This document shows, in pieces, positions 10,750 to 62,905 of a stretch of 64,000 nt of DNA (the first letter of the stretch is position 1; the number at the start of each line of letters is the position of its first letter). The stretch is from a bacterium (GTDB lineage Bacteria; Patescibacteriota; CPR2; UBA1875; CAIMLA01), in contig JBAXUE010000005.1 in NCBI GenBank assembly GCA_037129835.1, forward strand, positions 13,975 through 77,974, given 5' to 3'. The position numbers were made by a program, and so were the translations under genes. The notes under the pieces were generated by a model, which saw only the letters and a list, made by a program, of their open reading frames with translations, was not told the origin of the DNA and searched no databases.

Positions 10750-11285
10750 CAAATATATAGTAAAATCCCATCTTGTGCGCGATAGCGCACGTATATATTT
10801 GGTGGGGTAGTTTTAACTACTAGAACGACTTAATTAATCTCGGTAACAGGGGTGGGCGCGCGCATGAAATGGGGGTGCGTGCTCATTTCTCCCTTGCGGA
10901 GATAATAGTTAAGTAAGTGGGGGTGAAAGGCCCTTCCCTGCCACCAATTTCCCTATCTGCCACTTTATGTGGTTTGTACCTGTCGCTTTTGCGACGAAAC
11001 TAGGCTTTCCTCGTCGAGAATCTCTCGACGAAAGAAAGAAGCCGTCTTCGGTTGAATGGTCGCAGGGCGATCAGAACCTAACTGACGGCGTCAGTAAGTC
11101 TCTTTCGGCTTTCGCCGGCCGCTTGAGAATCTGCTCTCTGTGTCGGCGGGTACCAGAACCCCTGGCACGTCAGTGCGCAAACGATGCAAGTATTTGCTCG
11201 CAAACCGCACACTGGCCCCAAAGGTCTTCGCTTGAGTAATCAGCGAAGGCCCGAGGGGCCTTTCGCATTAAAATATTAGATTTTT
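10750..11285. other. GC-rich hairpin-dense non-coding island; candidate structured ncRNA (unassigned)
   Basis: ~55% GC against ~35% background. Many perfect short hairpins (CGTCGAGA-atc-TCTCGACG, CTGACG-g-CGTCAG, GTCGC-tttt-GCGAC, CCAC-tttat-GTGG, GGCCC-gag-GGGCC). Only a 90-aa low-complexity ORF. No RNase P P4 or SRP consensus found. Confidence 0.3.
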
Positions 11286-11509
11286 GTCATCCTTGCGAAG
11301 GCGAGGATCTCTGAGGTAATAAGAATTAATTTGATTTTGATTATTTTCTATTATCTATTTTCTCTTGAAAAAAAATGGAGTTAAGTTCAAGAAAAATCGA
11401 ACTCCTTCGTCTCTGCACTGAATTTTCAAACAAATTGAATAATTCCTTACATTCGACGATAGTTGGGTGTGTGGCACCGAAGCGATTTTTCATAAAAAGT
11501 AAAAGAATA

Positions 11510-12223
11510 TTACCTAGGTTTTTTAATAGCCGTCGTGGTAAGATTCGGTCCTAATAAAAACCAAAATTTATGTTTAAATCCAGATGTTTGGATTTGAGTA
11601 AATCCTGTTTTCCTTAAGAGCTGTTTCATCTCTGTTTTGGTCCAAGCATGAAAGTACCTGGTAGTCGTAACGATCGTGTCTGATCTTTTCCAAGGCATAA
11701 AAAAATCTCCAAGTGGGAGCTTGTTATCTGATAAGAAAGAGGCCCGGATTTGTTTGAGATATTTCGATTTATTCCAAAAATACCAATTTGTAAAAAATAT
11801 TTGTCCTCCTGGTCTAAGTATTCTTGATATCTCTTTGAGAGCTTCTATTCGTAACTCCTTACTCGGAATGTGGTGAAGAGTAGCGATACAATAGATGACA
11901 TCAAATTGGCCGTCTTCAAAAGGAGTTTTGAGCAGATTGCCAGCCACAAAATCGCCTTTTGGATATTTATTTTTGGCGATTTTGATTAAGTCGGGGCTTA
12001 GATCAAGTCCTGTATATCGAGCACCCTTCGACGTAAGGAATTCGTAAAGACGTCCATTTCCACATCCAAGGTCTAGAACATTCATATTTTTGAGCGCAAA
12101 TGATTCCGTGGCTTTTTCTATATCCGCCCATACATAATAACGAGTCCTAGAAAAGTGTTCCGATATTAGGTTATAATCATCACGGGTCTTAGTTATTAAA
12201 TTGTGAGCATATTTTTTATTCAT
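11510..12223 (-). CDS. class I SAM-dependent methyltransferase
   Basis: VLDLGCGNGRL (motif I) and DVIYC (motif II). Confidence 0.75.
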   Translation of the reverse strand: MNKKYAHNLITKTRDDYNLISEHFSRTRYYVWADIEKATESFALKNMNVLDLGCGNGRLYEFLTSKGARYTGLDLSPDLIKIAKNKYPKGDFVAGNLLKTPFEDGQFDVIYCIATLHHIPSKELRIEALKEISRILRPGGQIFFTNWYFWNKSKYLKQIRASFLSDNKLPLGDFFMPWKRSDTIVTTTRYFHAWTKTEMKQLLRKTGFTQIQTSGFKHKFWFLLGPNLTTTAIKKPR

Positions 12224-13901
12224 GAATATTAAAGAAGAAATTATTTATAAATTATTGGAAGCAAAAGCTTGTACACGAGGCGATTTTACTCGTGTGGTCG
12301 CTTCGGTGTATAAAAATGATAACACAAGCGGGTACCATTCGAATATGGAATTACGTTCTACGTACCAAATGCTTGTTGATTCTGGCGATATCGAAATAAA
12401 CGAAAACCTAGAAAAACTACTGATCACCAAAAAGATGCGTTCGCTCTCTGGAGTCTCCGTTATCACAGTTCTAACGAAACCGTATCCTTGCCCGGGTAAC
12501 TGTATATATTGCCCTACTGTAAAGAATGTTCCAAAGAGCTATTTGCCAGATGAGCCGGCAGTAATGAGGGCAATTCTCAATGATTATGACCCCAAGAAAC
12601 AAGTAGAAACTAGGATGGAATCCCTGGTCGGGCAAGGCCATCCTGTTGAGAAGGTGGAGTTAATCATAATAGGCGGTACTTTTTCACATTTACCCAAATC
12701 TTATCAGGAAGAGTTTGCGAAAAGTTGCTTTGATGCGCTAAACGGAAGCGTGTCAAAAAATTTGGTGGAGGCCAAAAAGTTAAATGAATTATCTATATCT
12801 CGATGTGTTGGCTTAACATTGGAAACCAGGCCTGACCATATTACAAAAGAAGAGGTGAAATGGTTTCGATATCTGGGCGCTACCAGAGTTGAGTTAGGTG
12901 TCCAAACTATCTATAACAATATTCTGCAGTTAAATAATCGTGGTGAAAAAATAGAAGACACTGTTCGAGCGACGAAACTGTTAAAAGACGCTGGATTTAA
13001 AATTTGTTATCACCTGATGCCAAATCTTTATGGCTCAGATTTGAAGAAAGATAAGCAAATGTTTGTTGAAATTTTCAACAATTCAGATTTTTGTCCAGAC
13101 TACATCAAAATATATCCCTGTATGGTAATTAATGGCACTGAACTATATAAACTTTGGCAAGAAGGAAAATATACATCATATACAGATGAAGAGTTATCAG
13201 AATTAATTTGCGATATCAAAAGAGAAGTACCTTATTGGATTAGGATTATGAGAACTATCCGTGATATTCCTGCGGGTAATATAGAATCAGGCTCTAAGGT
13301 GTCCAATATGCGCCAAAACATCCTTAAACAGGCAGAGGATGAGGGCTGGAAATGTCATTGTATTCGCTGTCGTGAAATTGGCGCAGGTCCGGCTTATTCT
13401 TCTTCGTCATCCTCATTCGAGCCTGAGCGAAGAGGTTCTCAGGCCTCAGAGCCGAATGGCCTGGTCACAAACCCAGGGATCTCTGACGGTCCATCCGAAG
13501 GAGATCTTCACCTTCGTAAGGATGACAAACCGATTATGTTTACAGACAAATACGATGCCAGTGAGGGAACAGAATACTTCTTAAGTTTCGAAGATGAAAA
13601 AAGAGAAAACCTTTATTCCTTACTCAGATTGAGATTAACGAACAACCAAACTATTGATGCTATTAGAAACTGCGCGATTATTCGAGAAGTACATACATAT
13701 GGTAAGGAAGTTGAGATTGGCAAAAAGGGGGACAATCAACACAAAGGATATGGCAGAAGGTTGATTGAAGAGGCTGAGAAGATTGCTAAATCTAATGAAT
13801 ACAAACAGATAGCGGTAATATCGGGGATCGGTGCCCGCGACTATTATCGCAAATTTGGTTATGAAGTTGTAGGCGAATACATGGTTAAAGAGTTGACATA
13901 G
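12222..13901 (+). CDS. Elp3-like radical SAM / GNAT acetyltransferase (tRNA wobble-uridine modification family)
   Basis: CPGNCIYCP radical-SAM cysteine triad, CHCIRCREIG, YDASEGTEYFLSFED and QHKGYGRRLIEEAE GNAT motif. Carries an in-frame ~120-bp GC-rich element (13405..13527). Confidence 0.8.
   Translation: MNIKEEIIYKLLEAKACTRGDFTRVVASVYKNDNTSGYHSNMELRSTYQMLVDSGDIEINENLEKLLITKKMRSLSGVSVITVLTKPYPCPGNCIYCPTVKNVPKSYLPDEPAVMRAILNDYDPKKQVETRMESLVGQGHPVEKVELIIIGGTFSHLPKSYQEEFAKSCFDALNGSVSKNLVEAKKLNELSISRCVGLTLETRPDHITKEEVKWFRYLGATRVELGVQTIYNNILQLNNRGEKIEDTVRATKLLKDAGFKICYHLMPNLYGSDLKKDKQMFVEIFNNSDFCPDYIKIYPCMVINGTELYKLWQEGKYTSYTDEELSELICDIKREVPYWIRIMRTIRDIPAGNIESGSKVSNMRQNILKQAEDEGWKCHCIRCREIGAGPAYSSSSSSFEPERRGSQASEPNGLVTNPGISDGPSEGDLHLRKDDKPIMFTDKYDASEGTEYFLSFEDEKRENLYSLLRLRLTNNQTIDAIRNCAIIREVHTYGKEVEIGKKGDNQHKGYGRRLIEEAEKIAKSNEYKQIAVISGIGARDYYRKFGYEVVGEYMVKELT
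13405..13527. mobile_element. RPE-like palindromic element inserted in-frame in the Elp3-like gene
   Basis: GTCATCC...CTGGTCACAAACCCAGGGATCTCT...TTCGTAAGGATGAC with inverted termini. GC-rich, encodes an S/G/P-rich peptide. Near-identical copy inside the AlkD-like gene. Confidence 0.5.
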
Positions 13902-16440: not shown

Positions 16441-17688
16441 ATGGCTACTGAAGAAGATAAAGGAATTAAACCGCTAGAGGCTGTAGAAACAACTGATAAT
16501 ATGGAGTTCGCCCCAGCCAAAAAAGAAAAACTCAAAATACCCAAGAACTTATTTATACTGCTTCTAGTATGTGTCATCACAATACCAGGAGCATATTTAC
16601 TTTATAGATCATTTGCTTCAGTAACTCGGACGTTGGTTTGGAGCGACGAATTTGACGGTACTGCATTAAATTTAACTAATTGGAGAATGACAGCTCCTTG
16701 GGGAAATGTCGTCAATCCAAATGCAAAAGAACTAGAACACTATTATCCTAAAAATGTAACAGTTAGCGACAGTAACTTAAAATTTAATACAACTAACCTC
16801 GGAACAGATATTACTTATCCTTATGAATCAGGGGTAGTCACAACTAATTCCAAGTTCGGATATGGATACATCGAAATGAGAGCAAAGCTCCCAAAAGGAC
16901 AAGGAATCTGGCCGGCTCTATGGATGATTAATTTCGAAGACACTCACGAAATAGATATTTTCGAGATGCTTGGGAACGAACCAAATAAAGTATATATGAC
17001 ATATCATAATACCAATCAAGAAGTTTACCAATCTGAATATATTGGACCAGATTTTTCTGCTGACTATCATATTTTTGCGGTAGACTGGCAACCAACTTCA
17101 ATCACTTGGTATATAGATGGAGTCCAGAGAGGTCAATATACTGGGGCCATCAAGCCTGACCCTTTGTTTATTTGTGCAAATACTGCAGTTGGAGGTCTTT
17201 GGCCTGGTTCTCCAGATAGTACGACAGTATTCCCACAAAATTATTACATTGATTATATTAGATATTATCAACAGACTGATGCTGTCATCCCTACCCCCAC
17301 TTCTACACCTTCACCAACCGTTGCTCCCACGGCTACTCCGACCCCTACTCCTACACCAACCCCTACTATTACTCCTATTCCTACGCCCACTAAAGTTCTA
17401 ACACCCACCCCTACAATTACCCCAATGGCCGTTTCCATCTCAAGTCCCTTGAGCGGAGGAAAAGTAAGTACTACATCTCAGATTATTAAAGCAACCGTAA
17501 CAGGGCCTTATGCTGTCAAATCAGTAGTGTTCTATATAGACGGAGTAGTTAAGTCAACTGTAACTAAGTCCCCATATTCTTATACTTGGAAAACAACATC
17601 CGTTACTAGGGGAACCCATATTATCAAGGTCCAAGCTACTGATTCATTAGGCCGAACAGCCTACAAGCAGATAATAGTAACCAGATAA
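16441..17688 (+). CDS. glycoside hydrolase family 16 (beta-glucanase/laminarinase-like), membrane-anchored, PT-linker + Ig-like C-terminal domain
   Basis: HEIDIFEM matches the GH16 E-x-D-x-x-E catalytic motif. N-terminal signal-anchor. PTPTPTP linker. Confidence 0.75.
   Translation: MATEEDKGIKPLEAVETTDNMEFAPAKKEKLKIPKNLFILLLVCVITIPGAYLLYRSFASVTRTLVWSDEFDGTALNLTNWRMTAPWGNVVNPNAKELEHYYPKNVTVSDSNLKFNTTNLGTDITYPYESGVVTTNSKFGYGYIEMRAKLPKGQGIWPALWMINFEDTHEIDIFEMLGNEPNKVYMTYHNTNQEVYQSEYIGPDFSADYHIFAVDWQPTSITWYIDGVQRGQYTGAIKPDPLFICANTAVGGLWPGSPDSTTVFPQNYYIDYIRYYQQTDAVIPTPTSTPSPTVAPTATPTPTPTPTPTITPIPTPTKVLTPTPTITPMAVSISSPLSGGKVSTTSQIIKATVTGPYAVKSVVFYIDGVVKSTVTKSPYSYTWKTTSVTRGTHIIKVQATDSLGRTAYKQIIVTR
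17309..17681 (+). repeat. 373-bp direct repeat copy 1 (PT-linker + Ig-like domain coding)
   Basis: Identical by eye to 19979..20351. Confidence 0.85.
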
Positions 17689-17835: not shown

Positions 17836-20358
17836 ATGGCTACCAAAGAAGAAAAGGTAATTAAACCACCAAAGTCTATAGAGACAACCGACAAGATGCT
17901 CGTCTCTCCTGTCAAAAAGAAACTAATGATACCCAAAAACTTTTTAATACTGCTTCTAGTATGTGTCATCACAATACCAGGAGCATATCTACTTTATAGA
18001 TCATTTGCCTCGGTTGGGACACAAAGTACGACAGCTACTAATACGGTCGATAGTATCAATTACCCCAGAACGGTAGAATATTGGAAGGACTATACTGCAG
18101 CAGAAAGGGCCAAGGTAGACCTGCTTATTATGGAACCATATCAATATCCAACCGAAACAAATGCTGTTAGAGCGCTTAATCCAGCTACTAAGATAATGCT
18201 TTATGAAGACATTGTAGAGTTTGATTATAATGCCAATGTAGCACCAACAGAATATGTAAATGAGCGTCTAAACGAAGGTTCTACTGATTGGATATTGACT
18301 CAGGTGGGGACTACCTTATCGGCAAGTGTTGATGCCACAACGACCACTATCCCTGTGACCGAGACAACGAAACTTAACGGTACGACTACCGTAGCTTTGT
18401 TCAAAATTGGTGAGCTTGCATTAGTCGATCACGAATTAATGAAAATCACAGCAGTTGGCACTAATACAATAACAGTCCAAAGAGGAGTTGTTAAAAAGGC
18501 GGCTGTACATGCAGCTGGTGTTCGAACAGCGGCCTGTGTAACTTTTTGGCCAGGCAGTGTAGTAACCGATATGACCAAAGCTAGTTTAGCTGTAGATCTC
18601 GGTACCGGCTTCGGACCAGAAACATATTACCAGTGGCGGGCAAGAGTGACGGGGACTAGAGCGGTTACAGAAAAATGGGACGGTGTTTATATGGATAGGG
18701 CAGATGGCAATGAGTCGTGGGTAATATCAACTGGTTATGCTAGAAGCTTTGATCAGGCTCGTACCAATACTTTTGTATCAGACAAATATGCTGCTTTTAA
18801 CACCTCTTGGAATGATGGTGAGATGCTTTATTATAAAGCCCTTAGAGCCAAGGTTGGAGTAGATATGCCGATTTTTGGTAACAGGGCTATCACAGGCTCC
18901 GCGGATATAAACGGTAGTTTAATGGAGGGATTTCCAGATAGTCAGATAAGTTCAAAGTCATGGCATGATATGATTGTTGGTCCCAACCTAGTCGCGGGTA
19001 GAGATGTTACTGGGACTTCTGTAATAGCTCCATATTTTAATTGGGTGAAAAATTCAAGAGATCCAAAATTGAATATAATCAATACTTACGAATATGAAGA
19101 CGGTACCAGCACTACAAATCCTTTTATTGATCCTAATTTTAAACGAAATTATCAGAAAATGAGATTTGGGCTGACAACTACCCTTTTGGGAAATGGCTAC
19201 TATGGTCACTTCTCGGGGATAACGGCTAAAAGCAACGGCTTTGCTTGGTTTGATGAATATGACAATGCTGGAGCGGGCAAAGGGTATCTTGGCCAGCCGA
19301 TTGGCGATGCTTATCAAGTTATCCCATCTCTTACGACTCCAGATCTAGTTAACGGAACTGGCACTTTTAATACACAAGCGCAACTTGATAGTTGGGAGCT
19401 GTATAACCGAGCTGGCTATGCATCGACAAAAACCCTCGATTCCGGCGCGGCTAAAATAAATATTACCGCAGCGGCTGGAAGCTTTAACGGAGTAGGTTTT
19501 TCATACCAGCCTTTTCCCATTACTGTTGGAGTAGAATATACTTTAACGTTTAGAGCAAAGGCTGATAAAGTTGTTAATATATATGCTTCTGCAGAGAAGA
19601 ATAATCCCTGGGGCTTCTTAGCAGAGTATGATGATCTTGGTCTTACTACAGATTGGCAGACTTTCAATATCCCTGTTAAGGCAATTGATTCAAGCACCAC
19701 TGGGACTATGAATTTTCTGCTTGGTGGAACCACTGGCACTATCTGGCTCGACGACGTCAAGCTTCAGGAAGGAAACCGTGAAGTCTACCGTCGTGACTTT
19801 ACTAACGGCATCTCTCTAGTAAATCCCACCGAATCTGCCGTCACTATACCTCTCGGTGGTAATTTCCGTAAAATCAAAGGGACTCAAGTTCCATCTATTA
19901 ATGACGGTTCTATAGTATCGTCAGTTACTCTTCAACCAAAAGATGGGATAATCCTTCTGCGAGAATCTGTCCCTATATCTTCACCAACCGTTGCTCCCAC
20001 GGCTACTCCGACCCCTACTCCTACACCAACCCCTACTATTACTCCTATTCCTACGCCCACTAAAGTTCTAACACCCACCCCTACAATTACCCCAATGGCC
20101 GTTTCCATCTCAAGTCCCTTGAGCGGAGGAAAAGTAAGTACTACATCTCAGATTATTAAAGCAACCGTAACAGGGCCTTATGCTGTCAAATCAGTAGTGT
20201 TCTATATAGACGGAGTAGTTAAGTCAACTGTAACTAAGTCCCCATATTCTTATACTTGGAAAACAACATCCGTTACTAGGGGAACCCATATTATCAAGGT
20301 CCAAGCTACTGATTCATTAGGCCGAACAGCCTACAAGCAGATAATAGTAACGAAGTAG
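17836..20358 (+). CDS. membrane-anchored putative glycoside hydrolase with CBM4/9-like carbohydrate-binding module, PT-linker and Ig-like C-terminus
   Basis: N-terminus nearly identical to the GH16 paralogue. Central TIM-barrel-like region (WDGVYMDRADG). CBM-like segment (WQTFNIPVKA...GTIWLDDVKLQEG). Hydrolase family not assignable by eye. Confidence 0.55.
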   Translation: MATKEEKVIKPPKSIETTDKMLVSPVKKKLMIPKNFLILLLVCVITIPGAYLLYRSFASVGTQSTTATNTVDSINYPRTVEYWKDYTAAERAKVDLLIMEPYQYPTETNAVRALNPATKIMLYEDIVEFDYNANVAPTEYVNERLNEGSTDWILTQVGTTLSASVDATTTTIPVTETTKLNGTTTVALFKIGELALVDHELMKITAVGTNTITVQRGVVKKAAVHAAGVRTAACVTFWPGSVVTDMTKASLAVDLGTGFGPETYYQWRARVTGTRAVTEKWDGVYMDRADGNESWVISTGYARSFDQARTNTFVSDKYAAFNTSWNDGEMLYYKALRAKVGVDMPIFGNRAITGSADINGSLMEGFPDSQISSKSWHDMIVGPNLVAGRDVTGTSVIAPYFNWVKNSRDPKLNIINTYEYEDGTSTTNPFIDPNFKRNYQKMRFGLTTTLLGNGYYGHFSGITAKSNGFAWFDEYDNAGAGKGYLGQPIGDAYQVIPSLTTPDLVNGTGTFNTQAQLDSWELYNRAGYASTKTLDSGAAKINITAAAGSFNGVGFSYQPFPITVGVEYTLTFRAKADKVVNIYASAEKNNPWGFLAEYDDLGLTTDWQTFNIPVKAIDSSTTGTMNFLLGGTTGTIWLDDVKLQEGNREVYRRDFTNGISLVNPTESAVTIPLGGNFRKIKGTQVPSINDGSIVSSVTLQPKDGIILLRESVPISSPTVAPTATPTPTPTPTPTITPIPTPTKVLTPTPTITPMAVSISSPLSGGKVSTTSQIIKATVTGPYAVKSVVFYIDGVVKSTVTKSPYSYTWKTTSVTRGTHIIKVQATDSLGRTAYKQIIVTK
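19979..20351 (+). repeat. 373-bp direct repeat copy 2
   Basis: Identical to 17309..17681. Confidence 0.85.
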
Positions 20359-26564: not shown

Positions 26565-27257
26565 TTGGAAGATCATATACACATTTTAAAAAGAAAAATC
26601 GAATATAAGCAGATTTTTCAAGTAATACTCGGAATAATAATATACACAATATTAATCGTGGCATTTTATTTTGGTTGGCACGAAGGAATAATTCAAGAGT
26701 TTATTCACGAAGCTGGCTTTATCGCACCATTATTATATATTACAGTCGCATCGGGCAAGGCTATTTTTCCAATCATTCCAGGAGAAGTTTTGATAATAAC
26801 AGGTGTAGTTCTTTTTGGTCCTATTTGGGGTCTTTCGTATGCTCTTTTAGGTCTTACATTGGGTTCCACAGCTGCTTTTTTTCTAGCTAGAAGCTTGGGA
26901 AGAAGATGGGTGAAGTGGTTGCTTGGAGAAAAAAATTATCATAGGATTAATGATCTTTCCGGGGATAAAACAATATTTACTTTCTTTCTAGTTTATTTGA
27001 CCCCGGGGACTCCAGATGATTTCGTTACATATATAGCAGGCTTGACTAGTATCAAGTACTGGCAGTTTATCGCGATATGTATCATCGGTAGATTACCATC
27101 ATATATTATCGCCGTCATTGGCGGGGTGAGTTTAAAGACATTAGATTATCGGCTGATGTTTTTCTGGTGGGGAGTAATGTTTGTCCTAGTGGGATGTCTT
27201 TATTTATATAAAAAATACTTTCTTGATAAAAAACTAAAGGACATTTCTAAAAAATGA
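26565..27257 (+). CDS. DedA/TVP38/SNARE-associated family membrane protein
   Basis: IPGEVLIITGVVLFG...G(ST)xAxFxLAR(SL)LGR and later YLTPGTPDDFVTYIAGLT conserved DedA motifs. Confidence 0.75.
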   Translation: MEDHIHILKRKIEYKQIFQVILGIIIYTILIVAFYFGWHEGIIQEFIHEAGFIAPLLYITVASGKAIFPIIPGEVLIITGVVLFGPIWGLSYALLGLTLGSTAAFFLARSLGRRWVKWLLGEKNYHRINDLSGDKTIFTFFLVYLTPGTPDDFVTYIAGLTSIKYWQFIAICIIGRLPSYIIAVIGGVSLKTLDYRLMFFWWGVMFVLVGCLYLYKKYFLDKKLKDISKK

Positions 27258-28123
27258 CTTATGACGAAGTTATGCTTCGATTAGACAAACTAGCTAGTCA
27301 TGACCCAAAGGATTTGGCGGGCATGGCTCGTTTTGGCATCAACGTTGATAAAGCTTGGGTAATTAGTATGCCGAAGTTAAGAATATTAGCGAAAGAGATA
27401 CTCTCACATTACAAAATACAAAAAATTGATAATAATGTGTCATCCCTGGTCGCAAACCCAGGGATCTCTCCCGTACCATCCGACTTATCCAGCGTAGCTT
27501 TAGCGAAGATGAAAAGAGATCCTCACTTTCGTAAGGATGACACAATAAAGATCCAAGAGCTGCATACCCTCGCTCTAGAAGTTTGGGATTCCGGTATTCA
27601 CGAAGCTAGAATATTAGCTGGTTTGATTGATGATCCAAAGATGGTAACTGGGGAACAAATGGAGAAGTGGGTTCTAGGCTTTGATAGCTGGGATGTCTGC
27701 GACCAGACCTGCGGTAATTTGTTTGATAGGACAGAATTTGCCATAAAAAAAGCACACGAATGGTCAAAAAGATCCGAAGAATTTGTAAAAAGAGCAGGTT
27801 TTGTCTTAATGGCTGGACTTGCCGTTCACGACAAAAAGCTTGAAGACAACGTCTTTATAGAATTTTTAGATATTATAAAACGTGAGTCTGGTGATAAGCG
27901 TAATTTTGTACGCAAGGCTGTGAATTGGGCTCTACGGAGTATTGGTAAATCGAGGAACAAATATTTGTATGAAAAATCCATAAGGGTAGCTGAGGAGATC
28001 CTCGGTCAAGCCAAGGATGACAGCTTGGTATGGAGTGGCACAGAAATAAAGGCTATGAATTTCATCGCCGGTGATGCAAAAAGAGAACTAGAAAAAGATT
28101 ATATAAAGAATCGTTTTCTATAA
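27254..28123 (+). CDS. DNA alkylation repair enzyme (AlkD/AlkC-like HEAT-repeat glycosylase family)
   Basis: HEARILAG, WDVCDQ and VRKAVNWALRS motifs resemble the DNA_alkylation family. Carries an in-frame GC-rich element at 27437..27542. Confidence 0.55.
   Translation: MTYDEVMLRLDKLASHDPKDLAGMARFGINVDKAWVISMPKLRILAKEILSHYKIQKIDNNVSSLVANPGISPVPSDLSSVALAKMKRDPHFRKDDTIKIQELHTLALEVWDSGIHEARILAGLIDDPKMVTGEQMEKWVLGFDSWDVCDQTCGNLFDRTEFAIKKAHEWSKRSEEFVKRAGFVLMAGLAVHDKKLEDNVFIEFLDIIKRESGDKRNFVRKAVNWALRSIGKSRNKYLYEKSIRVAEEILGQAKDDSLVWSGTEIKAMNFIAGDAKRELEKDYIKNRFL
27437..27542. mobile_element. RPE-like palindromic element inserted in-frame in the AlkD-like gene
   Basis: TGTCATCC-CTGGTCGCAAACCCAGGGATCTCT...TTCGTAAGGATGACA. 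The core is near-identical to the Elp3 copy. Both are translated in the same frame (LVxNPGIS...H-RKDD). Confidence 0.5.
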
Positions 28124-40379: not shown

Positions 40380-40390
40380 CTGGAGACCCT

Positions 40391-40472
40391 GTCATTCCTG
40401 GTCGCAAGCCAGGAATCCACCCATATAAATATTTTATTTGAAATAGATTCCTGGCTTGCGACCAGGAATGAC
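40391..40472. repeat. perfect 27-bp inverted repeat pair (GTCATTCCTGGTCGCAAGCCAGGAATC ... GATTCCTGGCTTGCGACCAGGAATGAC) in the pheS-pheT spacer
   Basis: Direct reading. Each arm is itself a hairpin. Same GTCATYCC family as the in-gene elements. Confidence 0.6.
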
Positions 40473-40487
40473 AAAGAGGAAAAAGAA

Positions 40488-44697: not shown

Positions 44698-44779
44698 GAT
44701 AAGTAATTATATATGCATACCATTAGGTATTATTATTGTCATATCTTTACAGGATCTGCTCTCCTAGGGCCCAATAATT

Positions 44780-44880
44780 TATTGTTTGAAGTCCCGCAAC
44801 TGCCGGATCGAGAACTACTTCCCGCGTCATTTCTCAATCTAGTTGAGGACAGGCTCTAAACTAGATTTAGCTTGCCTGCG
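44780..44880. repeat. repeat unit R1 (ATTGTTTGAAGTCCCGCAACTGCCGGATCGAGAACTAC...CCTCAATCTAGTTGAGG...)
   Basis: About 90% identical to R2 at 45328. Confidence 0.6.
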
Positions 44881-45327
44881 GTAAGCAGGGATCCATTTCG
44901 TAATACTTTGATACTTTTATCTATAGTTATTCTGTATTTACCACTTTTTTAGTAAAAGTGGTGCAAAAAGCCCGAACTGTCGGATTCTCACAGAGTCAGT
45001 AACTCACTTATTCATGTTTAGTAAAATTAACTCCCCGGCTATTGCCGGTTCAAACAAAATTATTACCAAAATATTTATAAGTAAGCTACTTCGCTTCTCG
45101 AACCGATTGTTCGGATAGAAACCGCGTAAACTCCCACGAATTCGGGTATCGTGCGTCGTCTATAACCCCATTGTCATCCCTGGACGACTCGTCCATCGTA
45201 GCCTTGGTGAAGTTGGAAGTGGAGAGATCTAACACAATATTTACCGTCATCCTTGGCTTGCCCGAGGATCTCTCGCACCTCCCCGTCATTTCAAACTCAA
45301 TTTGGAGTCCGTATCCACACCTTTTTT

Positions 45328-45418
45328 ATTGTTCGAAGTCCGGCAACTGCCGGATAGAGAACTACTCCCCGCGTCATTCCTCAATCTAGTTGAGGACAGG
45401 CTCTAAACTTGATTTAGG
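45328..45418. repeat. repeat unit R2 (ATTGTTCGAAGTCCGGCAACTGCCGGATAGAGAACTAC...CCTCAATCTAGTTGAGGACAGGCTCTAAACT)
   Basis: Contains two hairpins (TCCGGCA-ac-TGCCGGA; CCTCAA-tctag-TTGAGG). Confidence 0.6.
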
Positions 45419-45428
45419 ATCTCTTTCA

Positions 45429-45455
45429 TATCGTTCGAATGCCAATGAGAACTAT
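45429..45455. repeat. ATCGTTCGAA-TGCCAA-TGAGAACTATA motif copy
   Basis: Same ATYGTTCGAA...GAGAACTA family. Confidence 0.5.
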
Positions 45456-45742
45456 AGATACACTTACTTATTTCCGTTCATTTCTTCTTGATAAGAAACG
45501 AACCAAACCTGCCTGCCGCAGGCGGGGAATCAAGAAAAATCCTCCTACGCACCAGAGCTTCGGACGGACAGGTCGAACTCCTTCTACTCGGCTCGTAATT
45601 TTGTTACCAATAATTACTCGACCTCGTAGATAGTCGGAGCTGTGAGCCCAAAGCGATTTTTCGTTAGGGATATACACTATCAAACCATATTTTCGAAACC
45701 CCCACGATCACCCCCTGGCAGTAAACAGAGGATCTCCTTTTT

Positions 45743-45780
45743 ATTGTTCGAAGTCCGGCGACTGGCGGAAGGAGAACTAA
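45743..45780. repeat. repeat unit R3 (partial): ATTGTTCGAAGTCCGGCGACTGGCGGAAGGAGAACTAA
   Basis: Third copy of the R1/R2 5' module. Confidence 0.55.
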
Positions 45781-45900
45781 TTCCCCACCTTTTCCCTTTC
45801 AGACAAGCTGTAAAAAGTAGATATATTATTAAAGGGAGTTTGCAATATCGACAAAAAATTTGCAACAATGGTAAACCTTGTAAAATGCGATGTTTTGTAC

Positions 45901-45929
45901 TTGATTAAGCTTCAAAAAGTATATAAAAT
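45901..45929 (+). promoter_or_regulatory. candidate promoter TTGATT-N17-TAAAAT for the giant gene
   Basis: Same -10 hexamer and spacing as the pyrG promoter. Confidence 0.4.
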
Positions 45930-45942
45930 GTATATATAACTT

Positions 45943-48900
45943 GTGAGGGTAATGAAACCTAGAAAAGCTCAATTCAGAGATGAACGAAAACGAGCTATGG
46001 TCAGACCTTCTGTGTTTGCTTATTTTAGTGTACGTAAAATATTACAAAAGGTTAAAAATTGGGCTTCGGAGAGCTATTTTGTGAGGTTATTCAGAACTTA
46101 TCGGTTATCCCCAGTGATGTTTGGAAAATCTAGGTCTCATAGGCAATTTAAGCCTCAAAAGGTGAGAATATCTATTATGAAGCGAATCCGTTTGTTTTAT
46201 TTTGAGTTATTATATCTACCACACCTCTTTGCTAGAAAACCGCACGACACTGCCTATAAGAATATTAAAATATATAAAAAATACATGGATCATCCTGCTT
46301 CGGGTCCGATAAACCGTTCTGTTGTGGCTGGGTTCTTGGCTTCGACCCTGATATTTTTGACACTTCAATATGTAATGCCAAATGTATTTAATCTTTTTAC
46401 CCCCAATAGGGTAGAGGCATCATCAACGCCGATAACTTGGACCAGTAATGCCGATTTCAATACAAATGCAGTGACCACTGGGACAGCCACCACTATATCC
46501 TCAACTAACGCGACCCCGAACATTATTGTGAGCAATAATCAAATGAAATTGAATACTGGCGCTGGGGTACCCATAGTCCAAACAAGTACATTTACAGTAC
46601 CGGCACTTGTAACAAGTATTAGTGTAAATATCTCCGGCGGCGGCGGCGGAGGTGGTGGTGGGGGTTATAGTTCTCGTCTTAGACAATATTCTGGTACTGC
46701 TGGAACTGCAGGTACTTTTTCAAGTATTAATGTCGGAGGGATGACATTTACTGCAAATGGTGGTAGTGGTGGTGGTGGTGGTTCCCCAAATACAACTACG
46801 CCTGGAGCAAACGGGGCTAGCGGTAGCACTCCTTTCAGCGGATATCCATCGCTAAGTGGGATTCCTGGCGGCGGTGCTGTCGGTGGAGCAGGTGGATCAG
46901 CATATGCCGCCATGTATATCGCTAGTGCTGGCGGAAGTGGCGGTGCTGGGGGAGTAATAACTGGCACAATTTCAGTTACGCCTGGTCAAGTCGTAACATT
47001 AGTTACTGGGATAGCGGGTCAAGGCGGCACAAGCCAGTCTTATTCTGGCTCTGGCTCTAGCGGCGGGGCTGGTTTATCTCAGGTAACTTACATATTGCCA
47101 TATAGACCAAGCGGCAATATTTCTGGACTAAAAGTAGATGCTGGTAATGGTGTGAACTATAACTGGGAAAGCATCAATTGGAAATCACAATCCTTGCCCG
47201 CAGATACTTCTATCTCTTTTCAAGTCAGAACTAGTGATAATAATGCAAACTGGTCGGCTTGGGGTGGTCCCTTTACCCAAACTGTGGCTGGTAGTATCTC
47301 TGGAACGGGCAGTATTTCTAGTATGGCGATGTCTCGATATTTAGAAATATATATAATCTTAAATTCACCATTGCAATACTCAACGCCCATCCTTGACGAA
47401 TTTACAATAAACCACAATTCTGTCGAGGCGCCCCTGAATAATGCGACGACACTTTCAAGGATAAATAATGTAAGGTTAAAAAAGTCGACAGGTGGCGAGT
47501 TACCCGCAGGTTCACCAGGAGGAACTACGAGTGAGACCGGCATAAAAGTCACTACAACTGGTCTAAGCTGTGTCGGATGTGCAGTCTCTTATAATCCTTT
47601 TGTCGAAGTGGAATACAAACCAGTCGGGACGGCATTTGACGGCGCTACCAATCTCTTTACGGGTACGGCTGATGGTACTAATACATCTGTGGCAACCATA
47701 AGTGGCCTTCCTACGAGCACTAGCTATCATCTGCAGATGAGGGCTAGAGATGCTCAGGGCAGGGCTTCTAATTGGGTACCATATGGCACGGCTCCAGAAA
47801 ATATTAATGAAGCAGATTTTATTATCGATCATGTTTCTCCTATAGGTTCGATTACTGGTTGGAAATCTAAAACTAATGTAGCAAATGTCTTGTATGGAGA
47901 TAAATACTACGCATCATCGCGAGATATTAAGATTGCTTTTACCGCAACAGATGCCGGTGGCTCGAATCTATCACATGTTCAATTTTCTAATGACGGTAAT
48001 AGCTGGGGGAGTGTAGCTTTGGCAAATGGGGTTGATGGGTTACCAAACACGATTGATGATGTATATACTTTTGTTTCTGACGGAACTAGTCCGATCACGG
48101 GTGCTTATTATGCTGGAGATATTCCTTGGCAGCTTACAGCAAATGACGGTCAAAAGTTAGTCTATTATAGAGTGGTTGATAATGCGAATAATCAAACACC
48201 TTCGTATGTTTGGAGTGTACAACAAGATTTCAACGGTATAACGCAAGGGACACTGGCTACGCTGAATAATATTGATCTCGTTACAAATCCAGACTCAATC
48301 GGAATCTCTACTTTATCGACACCGATCGTTCAAACTTATAGTACGCCTGGTGATTATAGTTTTGCTGTACCTGCTGATGTCGTGACGATGTCTGTTGAGG
48401 TTATCGGTGCTGGAGGCGGAGGTGATACACCAACTACTGGTGGTGCCGGGGGTCCATCGACATTGAGCATAAATGGAAATCCTTCATATTATGTGACTTC
48501 AAATGGTGGTGCAGGCGGTGGAGTAGTGGGAGGGACTTCGGTCGGTGGGTTTGCGGGGCTTACAGCTATAGATGGTCAAGGCGGTGCTGGTGGTGCTACT
48601 GGAACTGAATCAACATTTGTTCCAGCGGGCCCAGACTATGATGATTGTGACCCCCCTAATATAATAGGTTGGCATGATGCGCATTGGGACACTGTTTACT
48701 ATTCAAATGGCGGTGCGGGGGGTAAAGTAACAGGGAATATAACTCCAGTTACAGTGGCGGGGCAAACCTTATCTATAAATGTTGGTGCAGGTGGTGTGGG
48801 GGCAACCGATAGTGCTCCGGATAGTACAAACGCCGGTAATGGTGATAACGGGAGTATTAAAATTACTTATACTACACCTAGCGCTTTTCTGAAAGGAACT

Positions 48901-51900
48901 ATAGGAAATACCGGTGTCGGATTGCGAGTCGGTGATGAGACGAACGGGGTAAAACAAACATGGTCTAGCATGAACTGGTCAGCGACAGGCTTGAGTGCTC
49001 TAAATAAAATTGGCGTCAAGGTACGAGCTTCCGATGTATATGGCAGTGGAAGTTACGTAAATCCATCAAATAATACTAATAGTTTTTATTATTTAAGCTC
49101 TGGAACCTCCGGAGTGATTCCAATATCAGCAAGTATATCTAAGACGAAAACAATTGAAGTTCAGCTAGAGCTCAATGGAGATGGTCTGACCTCGCCGATA
49201 CTAAATGATCTATCTATATCTGCTCTACAGGATCCATCAGCAATCACACTAGAAAGTATTGCACCAACAGGAACGGTAGTCGTAAAGGACGCCACTACTA
49301 GTAGTACTACGTATGCAAAATCCAAAGCTGTTAAGCTTATCATGACTTCTTCGGATGCAGGTTCGGGGGTTAAGGATTTTCAGGTTTCAAATGACGGGAC
49401 TAACTGGGGTACATATACTGATGCAAGTGGAGTAATCTTGGATACAGTAGGAAACTGCACTACTCCAAAAAGTTGGGACGAGACAACCTTAACTTGTTTT
49501 AAGCCTTGGGATTCTTCCTATAGTTCCACGGGCTATACTGCCTGGAGCCTTGGTGGATCAGACGGGCCAAAGACTATTTATGTACGTTACCGAGACAACG
49601 CAGGTAATATTTCTGGTGCGTCAGGATTATATACAACGCCGAATACATACAGCTATACTGTACCGGCAGGTATTACTAGTCTGTATGTGGACATAATGGG
49701 TGGCGGTGGTGGTGGTTCAGCTCCTTACTTTACCTCTGGTTTTGGGGGTGGTCCATCGTCGATAACTGTTGGAGCTAGTACTTATACTGCAGCAGGGGGC
49801 TGTGGTGGTAGTGGTGAGTTTGGACCTGGAACTTGTTCTTCTTTGCCAACAAATAATATTGGATTAACAGTTGTTACTGGCGGCGGCGGTGTTGGTGGAG
49901 CACCAGAGTGTTCTGACGGTTGCGGTGAACCGGGGGCTCCTGGGGATAGAGTCTATGGAAATATCAATGTTACCCCTGGTCAAGTGATAACACTTATAGT
50001 TGGCGCTGGGGGTCTTCCTGGTGGGGGTTATGATGGGGAGCCATTGCCAGGTTCAGCTGGTTCAATTTCTTACAACGTTGGTGCAAAAGCAGATATTGTC
50101 CTTGACACTGCTGGTCCAACAGGAGGCACGATAACCTCCCCTGACGGTTTTATCACCGCTACTTCAAATGCTCTAGTGGTTAACGATGGCACAGATACAG
50201 CTAGCGGAGTTGATACAGCCACAAGGAAAGTCCAACGAAAATCAGCCACACTTTCTGCTGGCGTTTGTGGCAGTTATGGTTCCTTCGCCGATATTACCAC
50301 TACTGGAACTTATCCGAACTTTGTTGATGGGACAATCGCCTCAGATAACTGTTACCAATACCAATATTTGGTTTCTGACAAGGCCGGTCACCAAACTATT
50401 TATACAAGCACTGGTATTGCAAAGGTGGATAATGCCGGTCCTGCGGGTGGTTCTATCTCATATAATAGTGGTTATTTTACCGCTACCTCAATAGCCCTAA
50501 CTGCAAGTGATGGCACAGATACAGCTAGTGGTGTGAATATCGCAAGTAGAATAATGCAAAGAAAATCAGCAACGCTCTCGGCAGGAACATGTGGAGCATA
50601 TGGGTCATTCGCGACCATTACTCCTACCGGGTCTTATCCGAACTTTACAGACACGACGGTTGTAAATGCGAACTGTTACCAATATCAATATCTAGTATCA
50701 GATAATTCTGCCAATAGAAAGACCTACACCACAACAAATGTAGCAAGGGTGGATACGGTCGCTCCCACTACTACGGGTTCTATTACAGCCGGTACGACGG
50801 GAGCTAACGACTGGTACAAAGAAGATAATGTCACATATACTCTCATTCCTGCAGATGTAACTTCGACGGTGGCAACCACTATGTACTGCTTGGACACAAT
50901 CGGCAACTGTAGCCCAACCACAGTATTAACGACACCATTTCATATCACTCTTTCAACGGAGTCAGCGACAAACCATATACGTTACAAATCAACTGATAAT
51001 GCTGGGAATGTACAGACTGTTGTAGATTCCGGAGTTATCAAGCTAGACAAAACGGGACCAAACGGTTCGGTAACAGTAAATAGTGGTGATAAGGCCACCA
51101 ATGATCCTGAATTAAAAGCAAACCTAGCCTTTACTCTCAATGACTCACTTTCTGGTGTTGAGAAATATCAGATAGATAATAATGATAATGCTTGGCTACC
51201 ATCCACTCCTGTTGATATATCTACTTCGGGTGCTTCTATGTCTGGTACTTACCCAAATTGGCAGCTAGCACCTGCTGGTGATGGTAGAAAAGTAGTAAGA
51301 ATAAAACTTACCGACCTCGCTGGTAATGAGGTAACTAATATAACCAATTGGATTGCTTATGATACGACACCGCCAAGTTCTGTAAACACGATAGTTGTAA
51401 AAAACGGAGATAATCTTTCACAAACACTAGAAGCAAATGGACACTCGCAGGGATGGTATACATATAATAAACCACAGTTCAACTTTGGCGCCGTCGATGA
51501 TGAATCGGGTATCAAGGAATTTAAATATTGTTTCTACCGAGCTGCAGATGAGAACTGCGACTATAGTGTTAACACGCCAATACCAGCGATAGAAGAAGGG
51601 GAGACAAGTACCTATAAAGCAAACTATATGCCGACTCTTACGGACTTAAGACAAGGTGCTTTAACCTTTAAGGTAAAGGGTGTCGACTATGTCGGCCTCG
51701 AGTCTCCTGTTGCAACATATATCTATAAATATGATGTGACCTTACCAGGTAGGGTATCTGGTTTTTCCGCTTCGAAGGGAACAGAAGAAACAACAGTAAA
51801 GCTTACTTGGAATGTGGCAAATATTGATACTGGATACCAGGCGCCTATAGAACAATACAAGATTGAGAGACTGCTTGCATCCGAATATACCAGCGGACTC

Positions 51901-54900
51901 GGTGTAGACGGTAATTGGGCAGAAACAATAAACGGTACGAAAATGTATCCAAGTTATTATTCTATAGTCTTGGATACTGTAACTGATTCGGCTAAGATTC
52001 CAAAAATAGATAATATCTATAACTATCGTGACGAAACTATGGAAAATTCTACTAAATATATCTATCGTATCTCTGCAAAAGATTTTTCTAATACTACTCC
52101 TAACGATGGCTTTGGACCACCGCCTGTCAACGAGCCAGCGTTTGAGACTTATGGTTATACAAAGGATAGTAAGACTCCAGAGATAATGCCTTCCGGCGTG
52201 ACGGCGGATGTATGTGATGGGGCCAGTCTCTATAATATCGTTTCAAGCCCAACAGGTAATTGTACTGATCTCTCTAAGAGGGCCAAAGAGGTTAAGGTGT
52301 CTTGGTCGGGAGCTTCTGACAAAGGCTCGGGAATTGATTATTATGAAATCTATCGTCGAGAAGGCTATAGTAGCATGGATTTAACAGGTTGGACAGTGGT
52401 GGGGACATCCCCCGAAACAAATGATAGTCTTATTGTTAGACGAGTATTTTTTGATGAGACTGTGCTTGATGCTAAAAAATATTCATATCGTATTGTGGCT
52501 TATGATAATGCAAGGCCCATTCCTGCGAATAGTACAGATCTTATTTTGAATAATGACGAAACTGACGTCACGAATGCTACTATTATTCCAGCAGAAGTTC
52601 CCGACATCACCGCACCAATTGTGCCAGACGCATTTGGTATTTTACCGCTAGGTATTGATTATAATAATCCCGCAAAAGACGCAAACGGCGACCCCTTTCA
52701 GAAAGTAATGATCAGTTGGAAACAAACAACTGACAACTATGCAAACACCAGCATAACTTATGACCTTTACTTTAAGAACGTGGCCTCTGAGGAACCTTTT
52801 GAACAAATACATACCGAATCGTCGGAGCCTTACGACCCAGCTGTTATCCCTCCTGCCACGGAACCACCAACTAAATTATCGTTCTCTTATAGTCAGACAG
52901 GTCTAGAAGGATTAACATCGTATTATTATCAACTAAAGGTTACTGACTCGGACGGAAACACCGCCACTAGTAGTACTAAAGTAATAACTACGGGAAACAG
53001 CGCTGCACCAACACCTCCAACAGAAGTCGAAGTTAGAAATGATGTCAATTCTTTAACCAATGCGAGTACTCAGCTTGCAGTTTCATATCGAGGAAGCTGG
53101 TCTAGAAAGTGTAACTCAGTTACAAAGGCAAACTGTATTATCGGATACGAGGCATACCAAACAACCAGTAATATTTCTCCAGATATCGACGGCAGTCAGA
53201 CAGTAACTGATTCTGACAACTGTAGTTTGACTGAAACGCCAGATGATTGTTGGATAAGAATCAATAGTGCTACTCTTGTTAATAATCAAACACTAAACCC
53301 AATAGAAGATGAGAGATATACAAGCAAGAGAAGCTTTGTTGCAAATAATCTGATCTCGGCAACCAGGTATTATTATAGAGTTCGAGCAATCGATAATAGT
53401 ACAGATGTCGTCGGTGGATTGAAGTCAGCTTTTTCAACAACATTCGAAGAAACAAAACATAAAACAAATGACCTTCCGGATTCTGGCTGGGATATAACAA
53501 GGGACCTTACTCCTCCTCCACTTCCAATAGATGGTCTAGAAGTTAAGGTACGTGATACCCATCCAAATTCTACTTTGCTGAGAAACTTAATTAGTTGGAA
53601 AATACTAAGTGAAAAACCCTTAAGAAAGAAACTTCCTTATGAAACAGCTTATAACGCTACGACGAATCCAAAGGGCTGTAAAATAGTGGTTGTGAGCGGT
53701 GTAGACTACTGTAACGACTTTTATAGTTATGAAGTATATCGAGAAGTAGTGGACTCTAATGATAAAGTGATTTACGAAACTTCTACCCCGATAAAGACAG
53801 AGATTAACCCTGAGACGAATTTCTATATCGATGAGATTGGCAACACAGATCTTATCGGTGGTACGGGCAACAGCTCATTACTTATCGACGCCAAAATAAG
53901 ATACTATGTCAAAGTCGTAGATAGTTCTACTCATAATTTCAACTATCCAGATGGCTCTAGTATTAATGCGCTTCCAAATAAAACCGAGAGGCAAAATTCT
54001 GCCTATACTATTATTCCAGCCAAAGCGATACCTGCCGTTATCGGCAGTGTAAGCTTAACTGATGTTAGCGTTACGACAGCTGTTGTTGGTTGGGCTACGG
54101 ATCAAGATACAGATTCCCTCGTTCAATATAGAGTCAAAGGAAGCACCGGGGATTGGGTAACTGTAGGCCAAGTTGAGAGAAGTTCTTCACATTCCGTGAG
54201 ACTTATCGGAATGCTCCCAAATACGGCATATGAGTACAAGCTAGTTTCTAGAAATTATCTCGATAACAGAGCTTTGTATGTTGAATCTTCTGTTCCTGAT
54301 CTGGCAACTACTGGCTTCAATATTACACCGGGTACTGTAACAACCACTACTTCTACAACTGAAGTTAAATGGACTACTAATCTAGACGCTTCATCGGCCT
54401 TTGTCGAGTATCAACTTCAAAAACAACCAGGTGATGACCCTCAGGGAGGTACTGCTGGCGTAGAACCGGCGGCTCTTGCTGCAAGTCCTGCAAATCATAA
54501 GGTAATCATCAAGGGTCTACGTTCATCCAGGACTTATACCTACAAGATTAAATCTATATCCAAAGATGGTTATCTCGCCGAACATCCTGCCGGTGAATTC
54601 GCAACATTCAAGACCAGGTCTTTCGATTCGGCCCAGTTTACTCTCTCTCCTTCATCTTCAAATGTTGCAGAAAGAAATATTACAGCTACCACAGCCCAGA
54701 TAGTTTGGCAGACAGAGAATCCCACTACCTCATGGGTGGATTACTCTACTACCTCAGGTGTTTACGATGGTGCGGCGGGTAATAATGATTTAGTAAGTTC
54801 TCATGTTGTAGTAATAGATGGTCTTATTCCAGGTACGAAGTATTTCTACAGGGTTCGGGTAAAAGATGTCAATGAAGTAGAATATACGTCTCAGGAGTAT

Positions 54901-62810: not shown

Positions 62811-62832
62811 AGAAGATTATCGCTTCCTTTCT

Positions 62833-62856
62833 GTCATTCCCGCGAAAGCGGGAATC
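62833..62856. repeat. GTCATTCC-CGCGAAAGCG-GGAATC hairpin element downstream of gyrB
   Basis: ATTCCC-N8-GGGAAT palindrome with GTCATTCC head. Same family as 40391. May act as a terminator, although no T-run follows. Confidence 0.45.
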
Positions 62857-62905
62857 TATATCCAAAAATTAGTAAGAATGATCGGGAAGGAACAAAGGAG
62901 AAAAT

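Follow-up and report, generated by a model that had tools for sequence, protein, structure and literature searches.

We analysed a 64-kb stretch of DNA from a bacterium of the Patescibacteria, called the window below, and focused on a short palindromic element that lies at 27438-27542 inside a gene of the 'DNA alkylation repair' family. This gene had been described as AlkD-like in the initial annotation. The family was right, but the nearest solved relatives of the protein, both by sequence and by fold, were 1t06 and 3zbo (Bacillus cereus AlkF) and not AlkD. We refer to the gene as AlkF-like. NCBIfam returned no name for its product or for a small GIY-YIG protein encoded elsewhere in the window. 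The coordinates of the features are collected in Table 1.

Structure of the element in the AlkF-like gene

The termini TGTCATCC (27438-27445) and GGATGACA (27535-27542) were inverted and perfect over 8 bp, as had been reported, and the perfect inversion in fact reached 10 bp (TGTGTCATCC, 27436-27445; GGATGACACA, 27535-27544). Of the span first given, 27437-27542, the end was correct and the start was off by one base, with TGTCATCC beginning at 27438. The local reading was …AATG TGTCATCC CTGGTCGCAAACCCAGG GATCTC … GAGATCC TCACTTTCGTAA GGATGACA CAAT…. The element measured 105 nt, exactly 35 codons, and was in frame with the open reading frame (ORF) 27254-28123, which confirmed the in-frame insertion within a repair-like gene.

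It had been treated as a single element. A DNA repeat it is, but not one unit. The element is a pair of opposed hairpin units and not one palindrome, namely two tagged hairpins of the repetitive extragenic palindrome (REP) type with a spacer, a class already described. The general plan of a unit was about 27-31 nt with a (T/C)GTC tag, an 8-bp stem opening with AT, a loop of 4-8 nt and a CTC tail. The spacer contained a module of about 30 nt (…CCAGCGTAGCTTTAGCGAAGATGAAAAG), which was missing in a second copy in the Elp3 gene of the window, present in a copy from another locus (L009) and degenerate at 45195-45225. As single strands, whole elements folded better than shuffles, with z of about -3. 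The 105-nt element did not differ (100% identity) among four assemblies obtained independently from different samples (L001, L002, L012, L013), so it was not an assembly artefact. A 60-aa antisense ORF at 27363-27545 (minus strand) was read as a by-product of the palindrome and not as a gene, because one antisense frame of the element was also free of stops.

Position of the insert in the host protein and its orthologues

The AlphaFold2 model of the host protein had a mean pLDDT of 88. Only residues 59-88 were below 50, and the remainder was at about 95. The insert corresponded to residues 62-96, between the helices at 39-52 and 94-111. A short helix of low confidence was predicted at residues 78-88, and the insert stretch was otherwise mostly coil. 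The proposal of a loop in an otherwise helical protein was thus borne out by the model, with a low-confidence stretch between two confident helices. By prediction only, the insert site appears compatible with the fold of the host as a loop, and the inserts in Elp3 and in a MiaB-like protein would lie in inter-domain linkers.

The comparison with homologues, which had been suggested as a check, found many orthologues without the insert. Among the closest 33 homologues, the distant ones and several close ones lacked it. In the others, the same two positions held inserts 9-56 residues long, whose peptides typically ended in (D/N)D. At the orthologous loci L003, L004 and L005, other CGTC/TGTC-tagged hairpins with outward tags occupied the same site, and their tags were read in two frames (GTC ATT… and G TCA TT…). 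Orthologues with and without inserts were interleaved in a neighbour-joining tree, which was poorly resolved and serves only to show the patchy distribution of the inserts.

The second of the two positions (site 2) was occupied in the window by a solo unit on the opposite strand (27995-28022). Its GAG ATC CTC end coded for the conserved E-I-L of the helix. A native GAG ATA CTC was observed just 5' of site 1 (27395-27410), identical in 8/9 positions to the GAG ATC CTC of site 2. Microhomology at both insertion sites of the AlkF-like gene is therefore possible on the basis of these strings.

Other copies of the element

The first comparison had been made with the copy in Elp3. Pairwise comparison of 13405-13527 with 27437-27542 gave two shared blocks, and the similarity was real and not one of low complexity. 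Block 1 comprised 39 nt that were 87% identical (27445-27483 against 13460-13498). Block 2 was located at the right end (GAGATC.TCAC.TTCGTAAGGATGACA). A 24-nt core occurred twice against 0.00 expected in shuffles, and the 15-nt right end three times against 0.17. The similarity claimed for the first 40 nt stood, but the figure of 36/40 did not. It was about 34/40, and only after a gap of 48 nt was opened, since the Elp3 copy contains an additional palindrome nested at 13413-13460. Both copies shared the reading frame (…LV[A/T]NPGIS…KDD).

Public collections were scanned with a 21-nt core. The matches were few. With the two copies of the window, they made up seven composite copies, in frame in five unrelated genes (AlkF-like, Elp3, QueA, MiaB-like and DHH) and in one non-coding place (L010), where the right unit differed. 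The QueA copy (L006, L007) had the long form seen in Elp3. The copy in the MiaB-like methylthiotransferase gene (L009), between the UPF0004 and radical-SAM domains, had the form of the AlkF-like gene and was 87% identical to it over 105 nt without indels. In the DHH phosphoesterase copy (L008), a 48-nt sub-element was located in the right arm rather than the left. The lengths were 105-126 nt, all seven divisible by 3. Of the sense frames, only the one used in all five genic copies was open throughout the set, while the Elp3 and QueA copies had one more that was free of stops. The GC content was 0.50-0.57 in the elements versus 0.38-0.39 in the host genes. No direct repeat that could be a target-site duplication flanked any of the seven composites when the flanks were read. 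The QueA contig L006 (JBAXEO010000304.1, 1.7 kb) was deposited in a metagenome-assembled genome of Coriobacteriia and matched the Patescibacteria-type locus L007. Judging from this match, the contig was probably mis-binned.

The AlkF-like and MiaB-like copies differed at 14/105 nt, with 1 difference in the left unit, 3 in the right unit and 10 in the spacer. At the codon level, these gave 8 nonsynonymous and 2 synonymous changes. In this comparison, the hairpins were conserved and the encoded peptide was not, and the mostly nonsynonymous changes mark the peptide as a passenger. Searched against 5.8 billion proteins, a profile built from the five insert peptides gave 9 word-sharing candidates, none of them significant. 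A blastn search of the element against a plasmid collection gave no match.

Exchange at the same sites was also observed. In the Elp3 gene of strain L011 (L011 1131-2771), the flanks were 97% identical to the window, and the Elp3 site held an unrelated palindrome (GGGTCCGACCC…GGGTCGGACCC…TATGACA). This indicates a recent replacement at the Elp3 site. In the related strain with the altered Elp3 site, the AlkF-like gene kept the 105-nt element unchanged (100% identical). Elp3 orthologues likewise carried varied inserts, both in the linker that follows CIRCRE and in other loops. Elp3 homologues bore names that put the lineage within the Patescibacteria. A sub-element of 48-52 nt (TCWTTCGAG…CTGAG…CTCAG…CGAATGRC) occupied part of the left arm in the Elp3 and QueA copies, whereas the DHH copy, on the reverse strand, had it in the right arm. 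Its presence in differing arms indicates that small palindromes enter other palindromes or recombine with them.

Family of hairpin units and stem covariation

Sixteen distinct units were tabulated from the window and related loci, and 13 of them were used in a register-safe alignment. The MAFFT alignment of the units placed pairs 7-8 out of register, and hence those pairs were counted by a script with explicit registers. In the 13 units, the outer six stem pairs were paired in 97.4% of cases, a value that was reached in 0/500 shuffles, and sliding the partner column lowered the pairing to 20-53%. The inner four pairs were paired in 62/64 cells of the 16 units, against a permutation mean of 41.5. 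They used several Watson-Crick types (CTGG/CCAG, TTGC/GCGA, TTGG/CCGA, TTAC/GTGA, TTGT/ACGA, CAAA/TTTG and others). All wobble pairs in the 16 units (8/8) were T·G on the tag strand. These results showed that the unit is a dispersed repeat that conserves its structure.

In the window, the strict pattern GTCATCC-N8-16-GGATCTC gave 5 matches against 0 expected from shuffles, and variants occurred in addition. Related variants with an ATTCC stem were located at 40390-40473 and 62832-62859. The published SRM pattern HGTCWYN(0-2)YYVSBRHN(0-5)WNVSBRGN(0-2)RNCYNB was matched in the window only at 62832-62859 (1 against 0.09 in shuffles), and the sequence there is nearly the Neisseria NTS consensus.

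Table 1. Positions in the window of the element, its parts, the host genes and the related hairpin units.
Feature	Position	Strand
Composite palindromic element, HH (tags-outward) heterodimer of two TGTC-tagged REP hairpins with spacer; encodes SSLVANPGISPVPSDLSSVALAKMKRDPHFRKDD	27438..27542	+
Left hairpin unit: tag TGTC, stem ATCCCTGG, loop TCGCAAAC (tcgcaaac), stem CCAGGGAT, tail CTC	27438..27468	+
Spacer, 47 nt, including the module of about 30 nt	27469..27515	+
Right hairpin unit, inverted: TGTC, ATCCTTAC, gaaa, GTGAGGAT, CTC; one T·G pair	27516..27542	-
Host gene: PF08713 HEAT-like-repeat 'DNA alkylation repair' family protein, 289 aa	27254..28123	+
Solo unit inside the AlkF-like gene, encodes EILGQAKDD; 96% (26/27) complementary to intergenic 45246-45272	27995..28022	-
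Sister copy, 123 nt (41 codons), in frame in Elp3, linker between radical-SAM and acetyltransferase domains	13405..13527	+
Host gene of the sister copy: Elp3 (TIGR01211)	12222..13901	+
Nested 48-nt palindrome (TCATTCGAGCC…GGCTCTGAG…CGAATGGC), splits the left-unit stem of the Elp3 copy	13413..13460	+
Solo intergenic unit: TGTC ATCCTTGC gaag GCGAGGAT CTC	11285..11311	+
HH homodimer in the pheS-pheT spacer, related unit (TGTC ATTCCTGG tcgcaag CCAGGAAT); perfect 28-nt arms, 28-nt spacer	40390..40473	.
Degenerate copy: tag and stem start (TGTCATCCCTGG), spacer-like module, then GAGAGATCT	45172..45230	+
Solo intergenic unit: CGTC ATCCTTGG cttgc CCGAGGAT CTC, within a 1.2-kb hairpin-repeat mosaic	45245..45272	+
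Unit TGTCATTCCCGCGAAAGCGGGAATCTAT, 22 nt past the gyrB stop; sole exact match of the window to the published SRM pattern	62832..62859	+

Other features of the window

A GIY-YIG ORF of 85 aa was located at 2045-2302, with a GTG start, a single domain and paired hairpins on both sides (1981-2366). These hairpins belonged to a second repeat family (TAGTTCTC…CGAACAATAA and TTATYGTTCGAA…GAGAACTA), which recurred in the 44.7-45.9-kb spacer. The best solved relatives of the GIY-YIG protein were UPF0213 structures (1zg2, 1ywl). The hairpin-nuclease-hairpin cassette resembles the published NTS-ssnA-NTS arrangement. The spacer at 44700-45940 was a non-coding mosaic, 1.2 kb long, in which hairpin modules from both repeat families were combined, and it lay directly upstream of an ORF of 3,222 aa with fibronectin/Ig domains (45943-55611). 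It contained a block of about 93 nt three times (44778, 45325, 45738), in addition to the TGTC/CGTC units at 45172 and 45245.

A GC-rich island of about 500 nt was observed at 10770-11270 (49-55% GC versus 27-39% around it). Its fold was much more stable than that of shuffles (z = -7.65) and had a terminator-like hairpin at its end, and it is a candidate structured RNA without an Rfam family above threshold. The Rfam search gave nothing at the gathering threshold in the window, and there were only sub-threshold matches at chance level in two repeat-rich spacers. No tRNA genes were found in the window. A 300-nt direct repeat with 99% identity (17303-17602 and 19973-20272) encoded the C-terminal Big_7 domains of two glycoside-hydrolase-like genes that lie next to each other (16441-17688 and 17836-20358), which suggests a recent duplication or gene conversion.

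Probable origin and spread of the element

The initial annotation had argued for a mobile or recombining DNA and not for convergent evolution of the proteins. This was upheld by copies in three further unrelated genes and in non-coding DNA, by the intergenic units, and by nonsynonymous changes that spared the hairpins. We consider it quite probable that the element is an intragenic copy of a short CGTC/TGTC-tagged repeat of the REP class, which spread as DNA through its hairpins, was filtered by selection, and left a peptide that is a tolerated passenger. Such an element would spread or be exchanged as DNA via its hairpins, probably in single-stranded form, and would be aided by an enzyme encoded elsewhere. 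Recombination between copies may contribute, because modules appear to be swapped and nested. Selection would act as a filter, so that copies in essential genes persist only if they are a multiple of 3 nt long, free of stops and placed in a tolerant loop or linker. The 35-residue peptide would then be a tolerated passenger rather than a designed module.

Several observations weigh against this reading. No transposase was found by Pfam in essentially all ORFs of at least 100 aa in the window, neither a Y1-transposase nor a REP-associated tyrosine transposase (RAYT). Movement is inferred here and not shown, because no candidate for a mobilising enzyme of this family was found in the window. The tail was CTC instead of the usual CCA, the left loop had 8 nt instead of 4-5, and only one unit of the window strictly matched the published SRM pattern. 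For the copy at 27438-27542, an empty site was not seen in the one closely related strain that was compared. The composite was rare, with 1 match in 185,579 species genomes, a representative set from which the source genome of the window was absent, and 4 matches in the JGI metagenome collection. Viral contigs of IMG/VR contained no match to the core pattern. In a phmmer search of the 44-aa Elp3 insert against 1.84 billion representatives, one weak match only was obtained (a 5,579-aa protein). Since the peptide searches were nearly empty, the composite is not a widespread protein motif. In addition, the recurrence at the same site of a protein could reflect one old insertion followed by replacement, and not repeated insertion.

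These data do not distinguish transposition from replacement by gene conversion. That sites are reused suggests conversion or events guided by microhomology, and so does the 26/27 match of the site-2 unit to an intergenic unit, although xQxDD is common to many orthologues at that site. The use of two reading frames at one site speaks for fresh insertions, as does the occurrence in unrelated genes. In an account based on conversion, an old REP insertion at each site would be overwritten repeatedly, by gene conversion or template switching, by the REP family that is currently abundant. The tags and tails would serve as homology, and the element would be 'recombining' rather than 'mobile'. We regard this account as somewhat doubtful, although it deserves serious attention. 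It accords with the differing tagged families held by the same two AlkF-like sites and the same Elp3 linker, and with xQxDD at site 2, which is common to many orthologues, yet encoded in the window by DNA that is nearly complementary to 45246-45272. It also fits the mosaic nature of the elements, in which the sub-element lies within the left arm of one copy and the right arm of another and the L010 right arm is different, and the likeness of the native GAG ATA CTC (site 1) and GAG ATC CTC (site 2) to the REP tail GAGATCCTC. However, overwriting leaves unexplained how the element first came into five unrelated genes or into non-coding DNA. The tags in two reading frames at the same site among orthologues do not favour it, and the replacement palindrome of L011 lacks the same left tag. 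The account is compatible with the spread of a tagged REP as DNA and does not exclude it.

The hairpins might instead be kept for a function in the cell, with the insertion into coding DNA being secondary. They would be sites of an Ssn-type GIY-YIG nuclease that limits or steers the recombination of incoming DNA, or hairpins for mRNA stability or translation. This is unlikely in our judgement, though the layout is like that of NTS/SRM, with a conserved 5' GTCAT flank, a stem, an ATC end and one unit that matches the SRM pattern exactly. Compensatory changes maintain the stems, and the restriction of all wobbles to T·G on the tag strand suggests one folded strand, but these pairs may be inherited within one subfamily rather than maintained independently. 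The window does encode a single-domain GIY-YIG protein with flanking hairpin repeats; those hairpins are of a different family, however, and the nearest structures of the protein are UPF0213. The units of the element also fail the strict SRM pattern. A protein module that was selected for its peptide, as a linear motif or flexible linker, and gained convergently or by exon-like shuffling, is very improbable. All five genic copies use one reading frame and NPGIS and KDD are invariant, but the invariant residues are exactly those coded by the hairpin stems and tags. The excess of nonsynonymous changes between copies, the existence of non-coding copies and solo units, and the pLDDT below 50 in the insert region also argue against it, and no protein family emerged from the five-peptide profile or from the phmmer search with the Elp3 insert. 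An artefact of assembly or binning, or a chance palindrome, can be given almost no weight. The sequences come from metagenome assemblies and one related contig was binned with Coriobacteriia, but the element is identical in the four independent assemblies and the chance expectation of the motif is 0. An intein, an intron or another excised segment was rejected, because the always-open frame and the length in multiples of 3 would be unnecessary for it.

It is conceivable, but in our opinion improbable, that tagged REP hairpins are currently active in Patescibacteria and directed to their sites rather than merely filtered by selection, for example by hairpin-prone single-stranded DNA or by native strings of GAGATNCTC acting as mimics of the REP tail, and that small GIY-YIG nucleases flanked by hairpins cut or move them. 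If this were true, the disordered loops of housekeeping enzymes would be continuously remodelled in reduced genomes.

So far, in-frame palindromic repeats have mostly counted as an oddity of Rickettsia and some Proteobacteria. Here, tagged hairpin repeats of the same class decorate housekeeping proteins in a bacterium of the candidate phyla radiation, and a literature search found no paper tying such repeats to Patescibacteria. The finding is of moderate interest for its occurrence in Patescibacteria, the reuse of sites across orthologues and the turnover at the strain level. In many relatives, the same loops of the orthologues are occupied by different repeat families, and a GIY-YIG gene with flanking hairpins is found nearby. 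To annotators, the finding explains many odd inserts rich in Ser/Pro/Asp and spurious antisense ORFs in Patescibacteria proteins. It also offers a natural system for asking how repeats of the CGTC type spread when no transposase is known for them, and whether Ssn nucleases take part.

Comparison with known systems

The element has the features of the CGTC-tagged REPs. In these, the CGTC tag is unpaired and 'changed to TGTC … in many repeats', the stem of 8-9 bp opens with an A-T and then a T-A pair, the loop has 4-5 nt (with other lengths in some families), and a short tail, for the most part CCA, stays unpaired (Di Nocera, De Gregorio & Rocco 2013, PMC3733652). In our set, 16/16 units had GTC preceded by T (mostly) or C. 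The stems were 8 bp long, with A-T as pair 1 in 16/16 and T-A as pair 2 in 16/16. The right unit and most solo units had loops of 4-5 nt, whereas the left unit had 8 nt and the 40390 unit 7 nt. The tail differed and was CTC, with CTA or CCA in a few units. CGTC-tagged REPs mostly form HH dimers with the tags outside and spacers of 20-100 bp that are often structured, and heterodimers are frequent (PMC3733652). HH dimers with outward tags were found here at 27438-27542 (47-nt spacer), 13405-13527 and 40390-40473 (28-nt spacer). REPs of this superfamily are also scattered over their genomes in many copies (PMC3733652), and the 64 kb covered here yielded five strict-pattern units and further variants. 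Intragenic copies of these REPs are concentrated in DNA-repair and RNA/tRNA-modifying genes, where they encode 20-40 residues, and there is no dedicated or adjacent transposase (PMC3733652). The present element is similar in being a heterodimer, in its in-gene copies in repair and tRNA-modification genes and in having no adjacent transposase. CGTC-1 is the dRS3 of Neisseria, and CGTC-1/-4 are RPE-6/RPE-4 of Rickettsia conorii (PMC3733652). Compared with dRS3-type units, the stem core ATCC is one base shorter than ATTCC. The survey of 2013 covered five phyla, mostly Alphaproteobacteria (PMC3733652), and the host here is a bacterium of the Patescibacteria.

Rickettsia palindromic elements (RPEs) lie in frame in unrelated housekeeping genes, with one conserved frame and at tolerated loop positions (PMC10969869). 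They are palindromic and about 100-150 nt long, encode a conserved peptide, sit where the fold of the host protein allows it and are also present in non-coding DNA, according to later summaries of the original description (Ogata et al. 2000 as summarised in PMC10969869, PMC3733652). Five unrelated host genes, one frame, 105-126 nt and a peptide encoded by the element were likewise found here. The insert site fits the fold of the host protein, by prediction only, copies also occur in non-coding DNA, and the host genome is reduced. A host-dependent lifestyle is likely for the bacterium of the window, as with Rickettsia. The differences are the other sequence families, the other phylum and the handful of composite copies detected. 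The same orthologue sites are reused here by different families, and a close strain differs at one site. Membership by sequence in RPE-1…RPE-10 is unlikely, because the phylum differs.

The small GIY-YIG nuclease SsnA binds and cuts the single-stranded DNA of NTS (CGTCATTCCCGCGMAVGCGGGAATCYRG), a longer motif that contains dRS3 (Chenal et al. 2025, PMC11893778). The genes of Ssn nucleases are usually flanked by the motif, which is cut just upstream of the tag, and what was shown for Ssn is the cutting of hairpins, not their movement (PMC11893778). A term search of that paper found no mention of in-frame coding copies (PMC11893778). Our units are like NTS/SRM in their oriented 5' flank (C/T)GTCAT, their 3' ATC and their clusters near particular genes. 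However, the two units of the element do not match the SRM pattern, because their stem core is one base shorter.

Like the REPIN/RAYT system, the element has two inverted REP hairpins, is foldable over about 100 nt, is non-autonomous and has no target duplication. In contrast, the tag is (T/C)GTC and not GTAG, no RAYT (IS200/IS605-like) gene was seen in the window, and REPINs are essentially extragenic. A GTAG REP/RAYT assignment was rejected for the wrong tag and the lack of a RAYT in the window. [quoted passage not shown] They differ in that the seven copies had no target-site duplication, the ends here are autonomous hairpin repeats and no related insertion sequence was seen. A DDE-type MITE was rejected for the missing target duplication. 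The element thus belongs to the described tagged-REP or RPE-like kind and is therefore not categorically new, and it departs from that kind in its CTC tail, its loop length and its host phylum.

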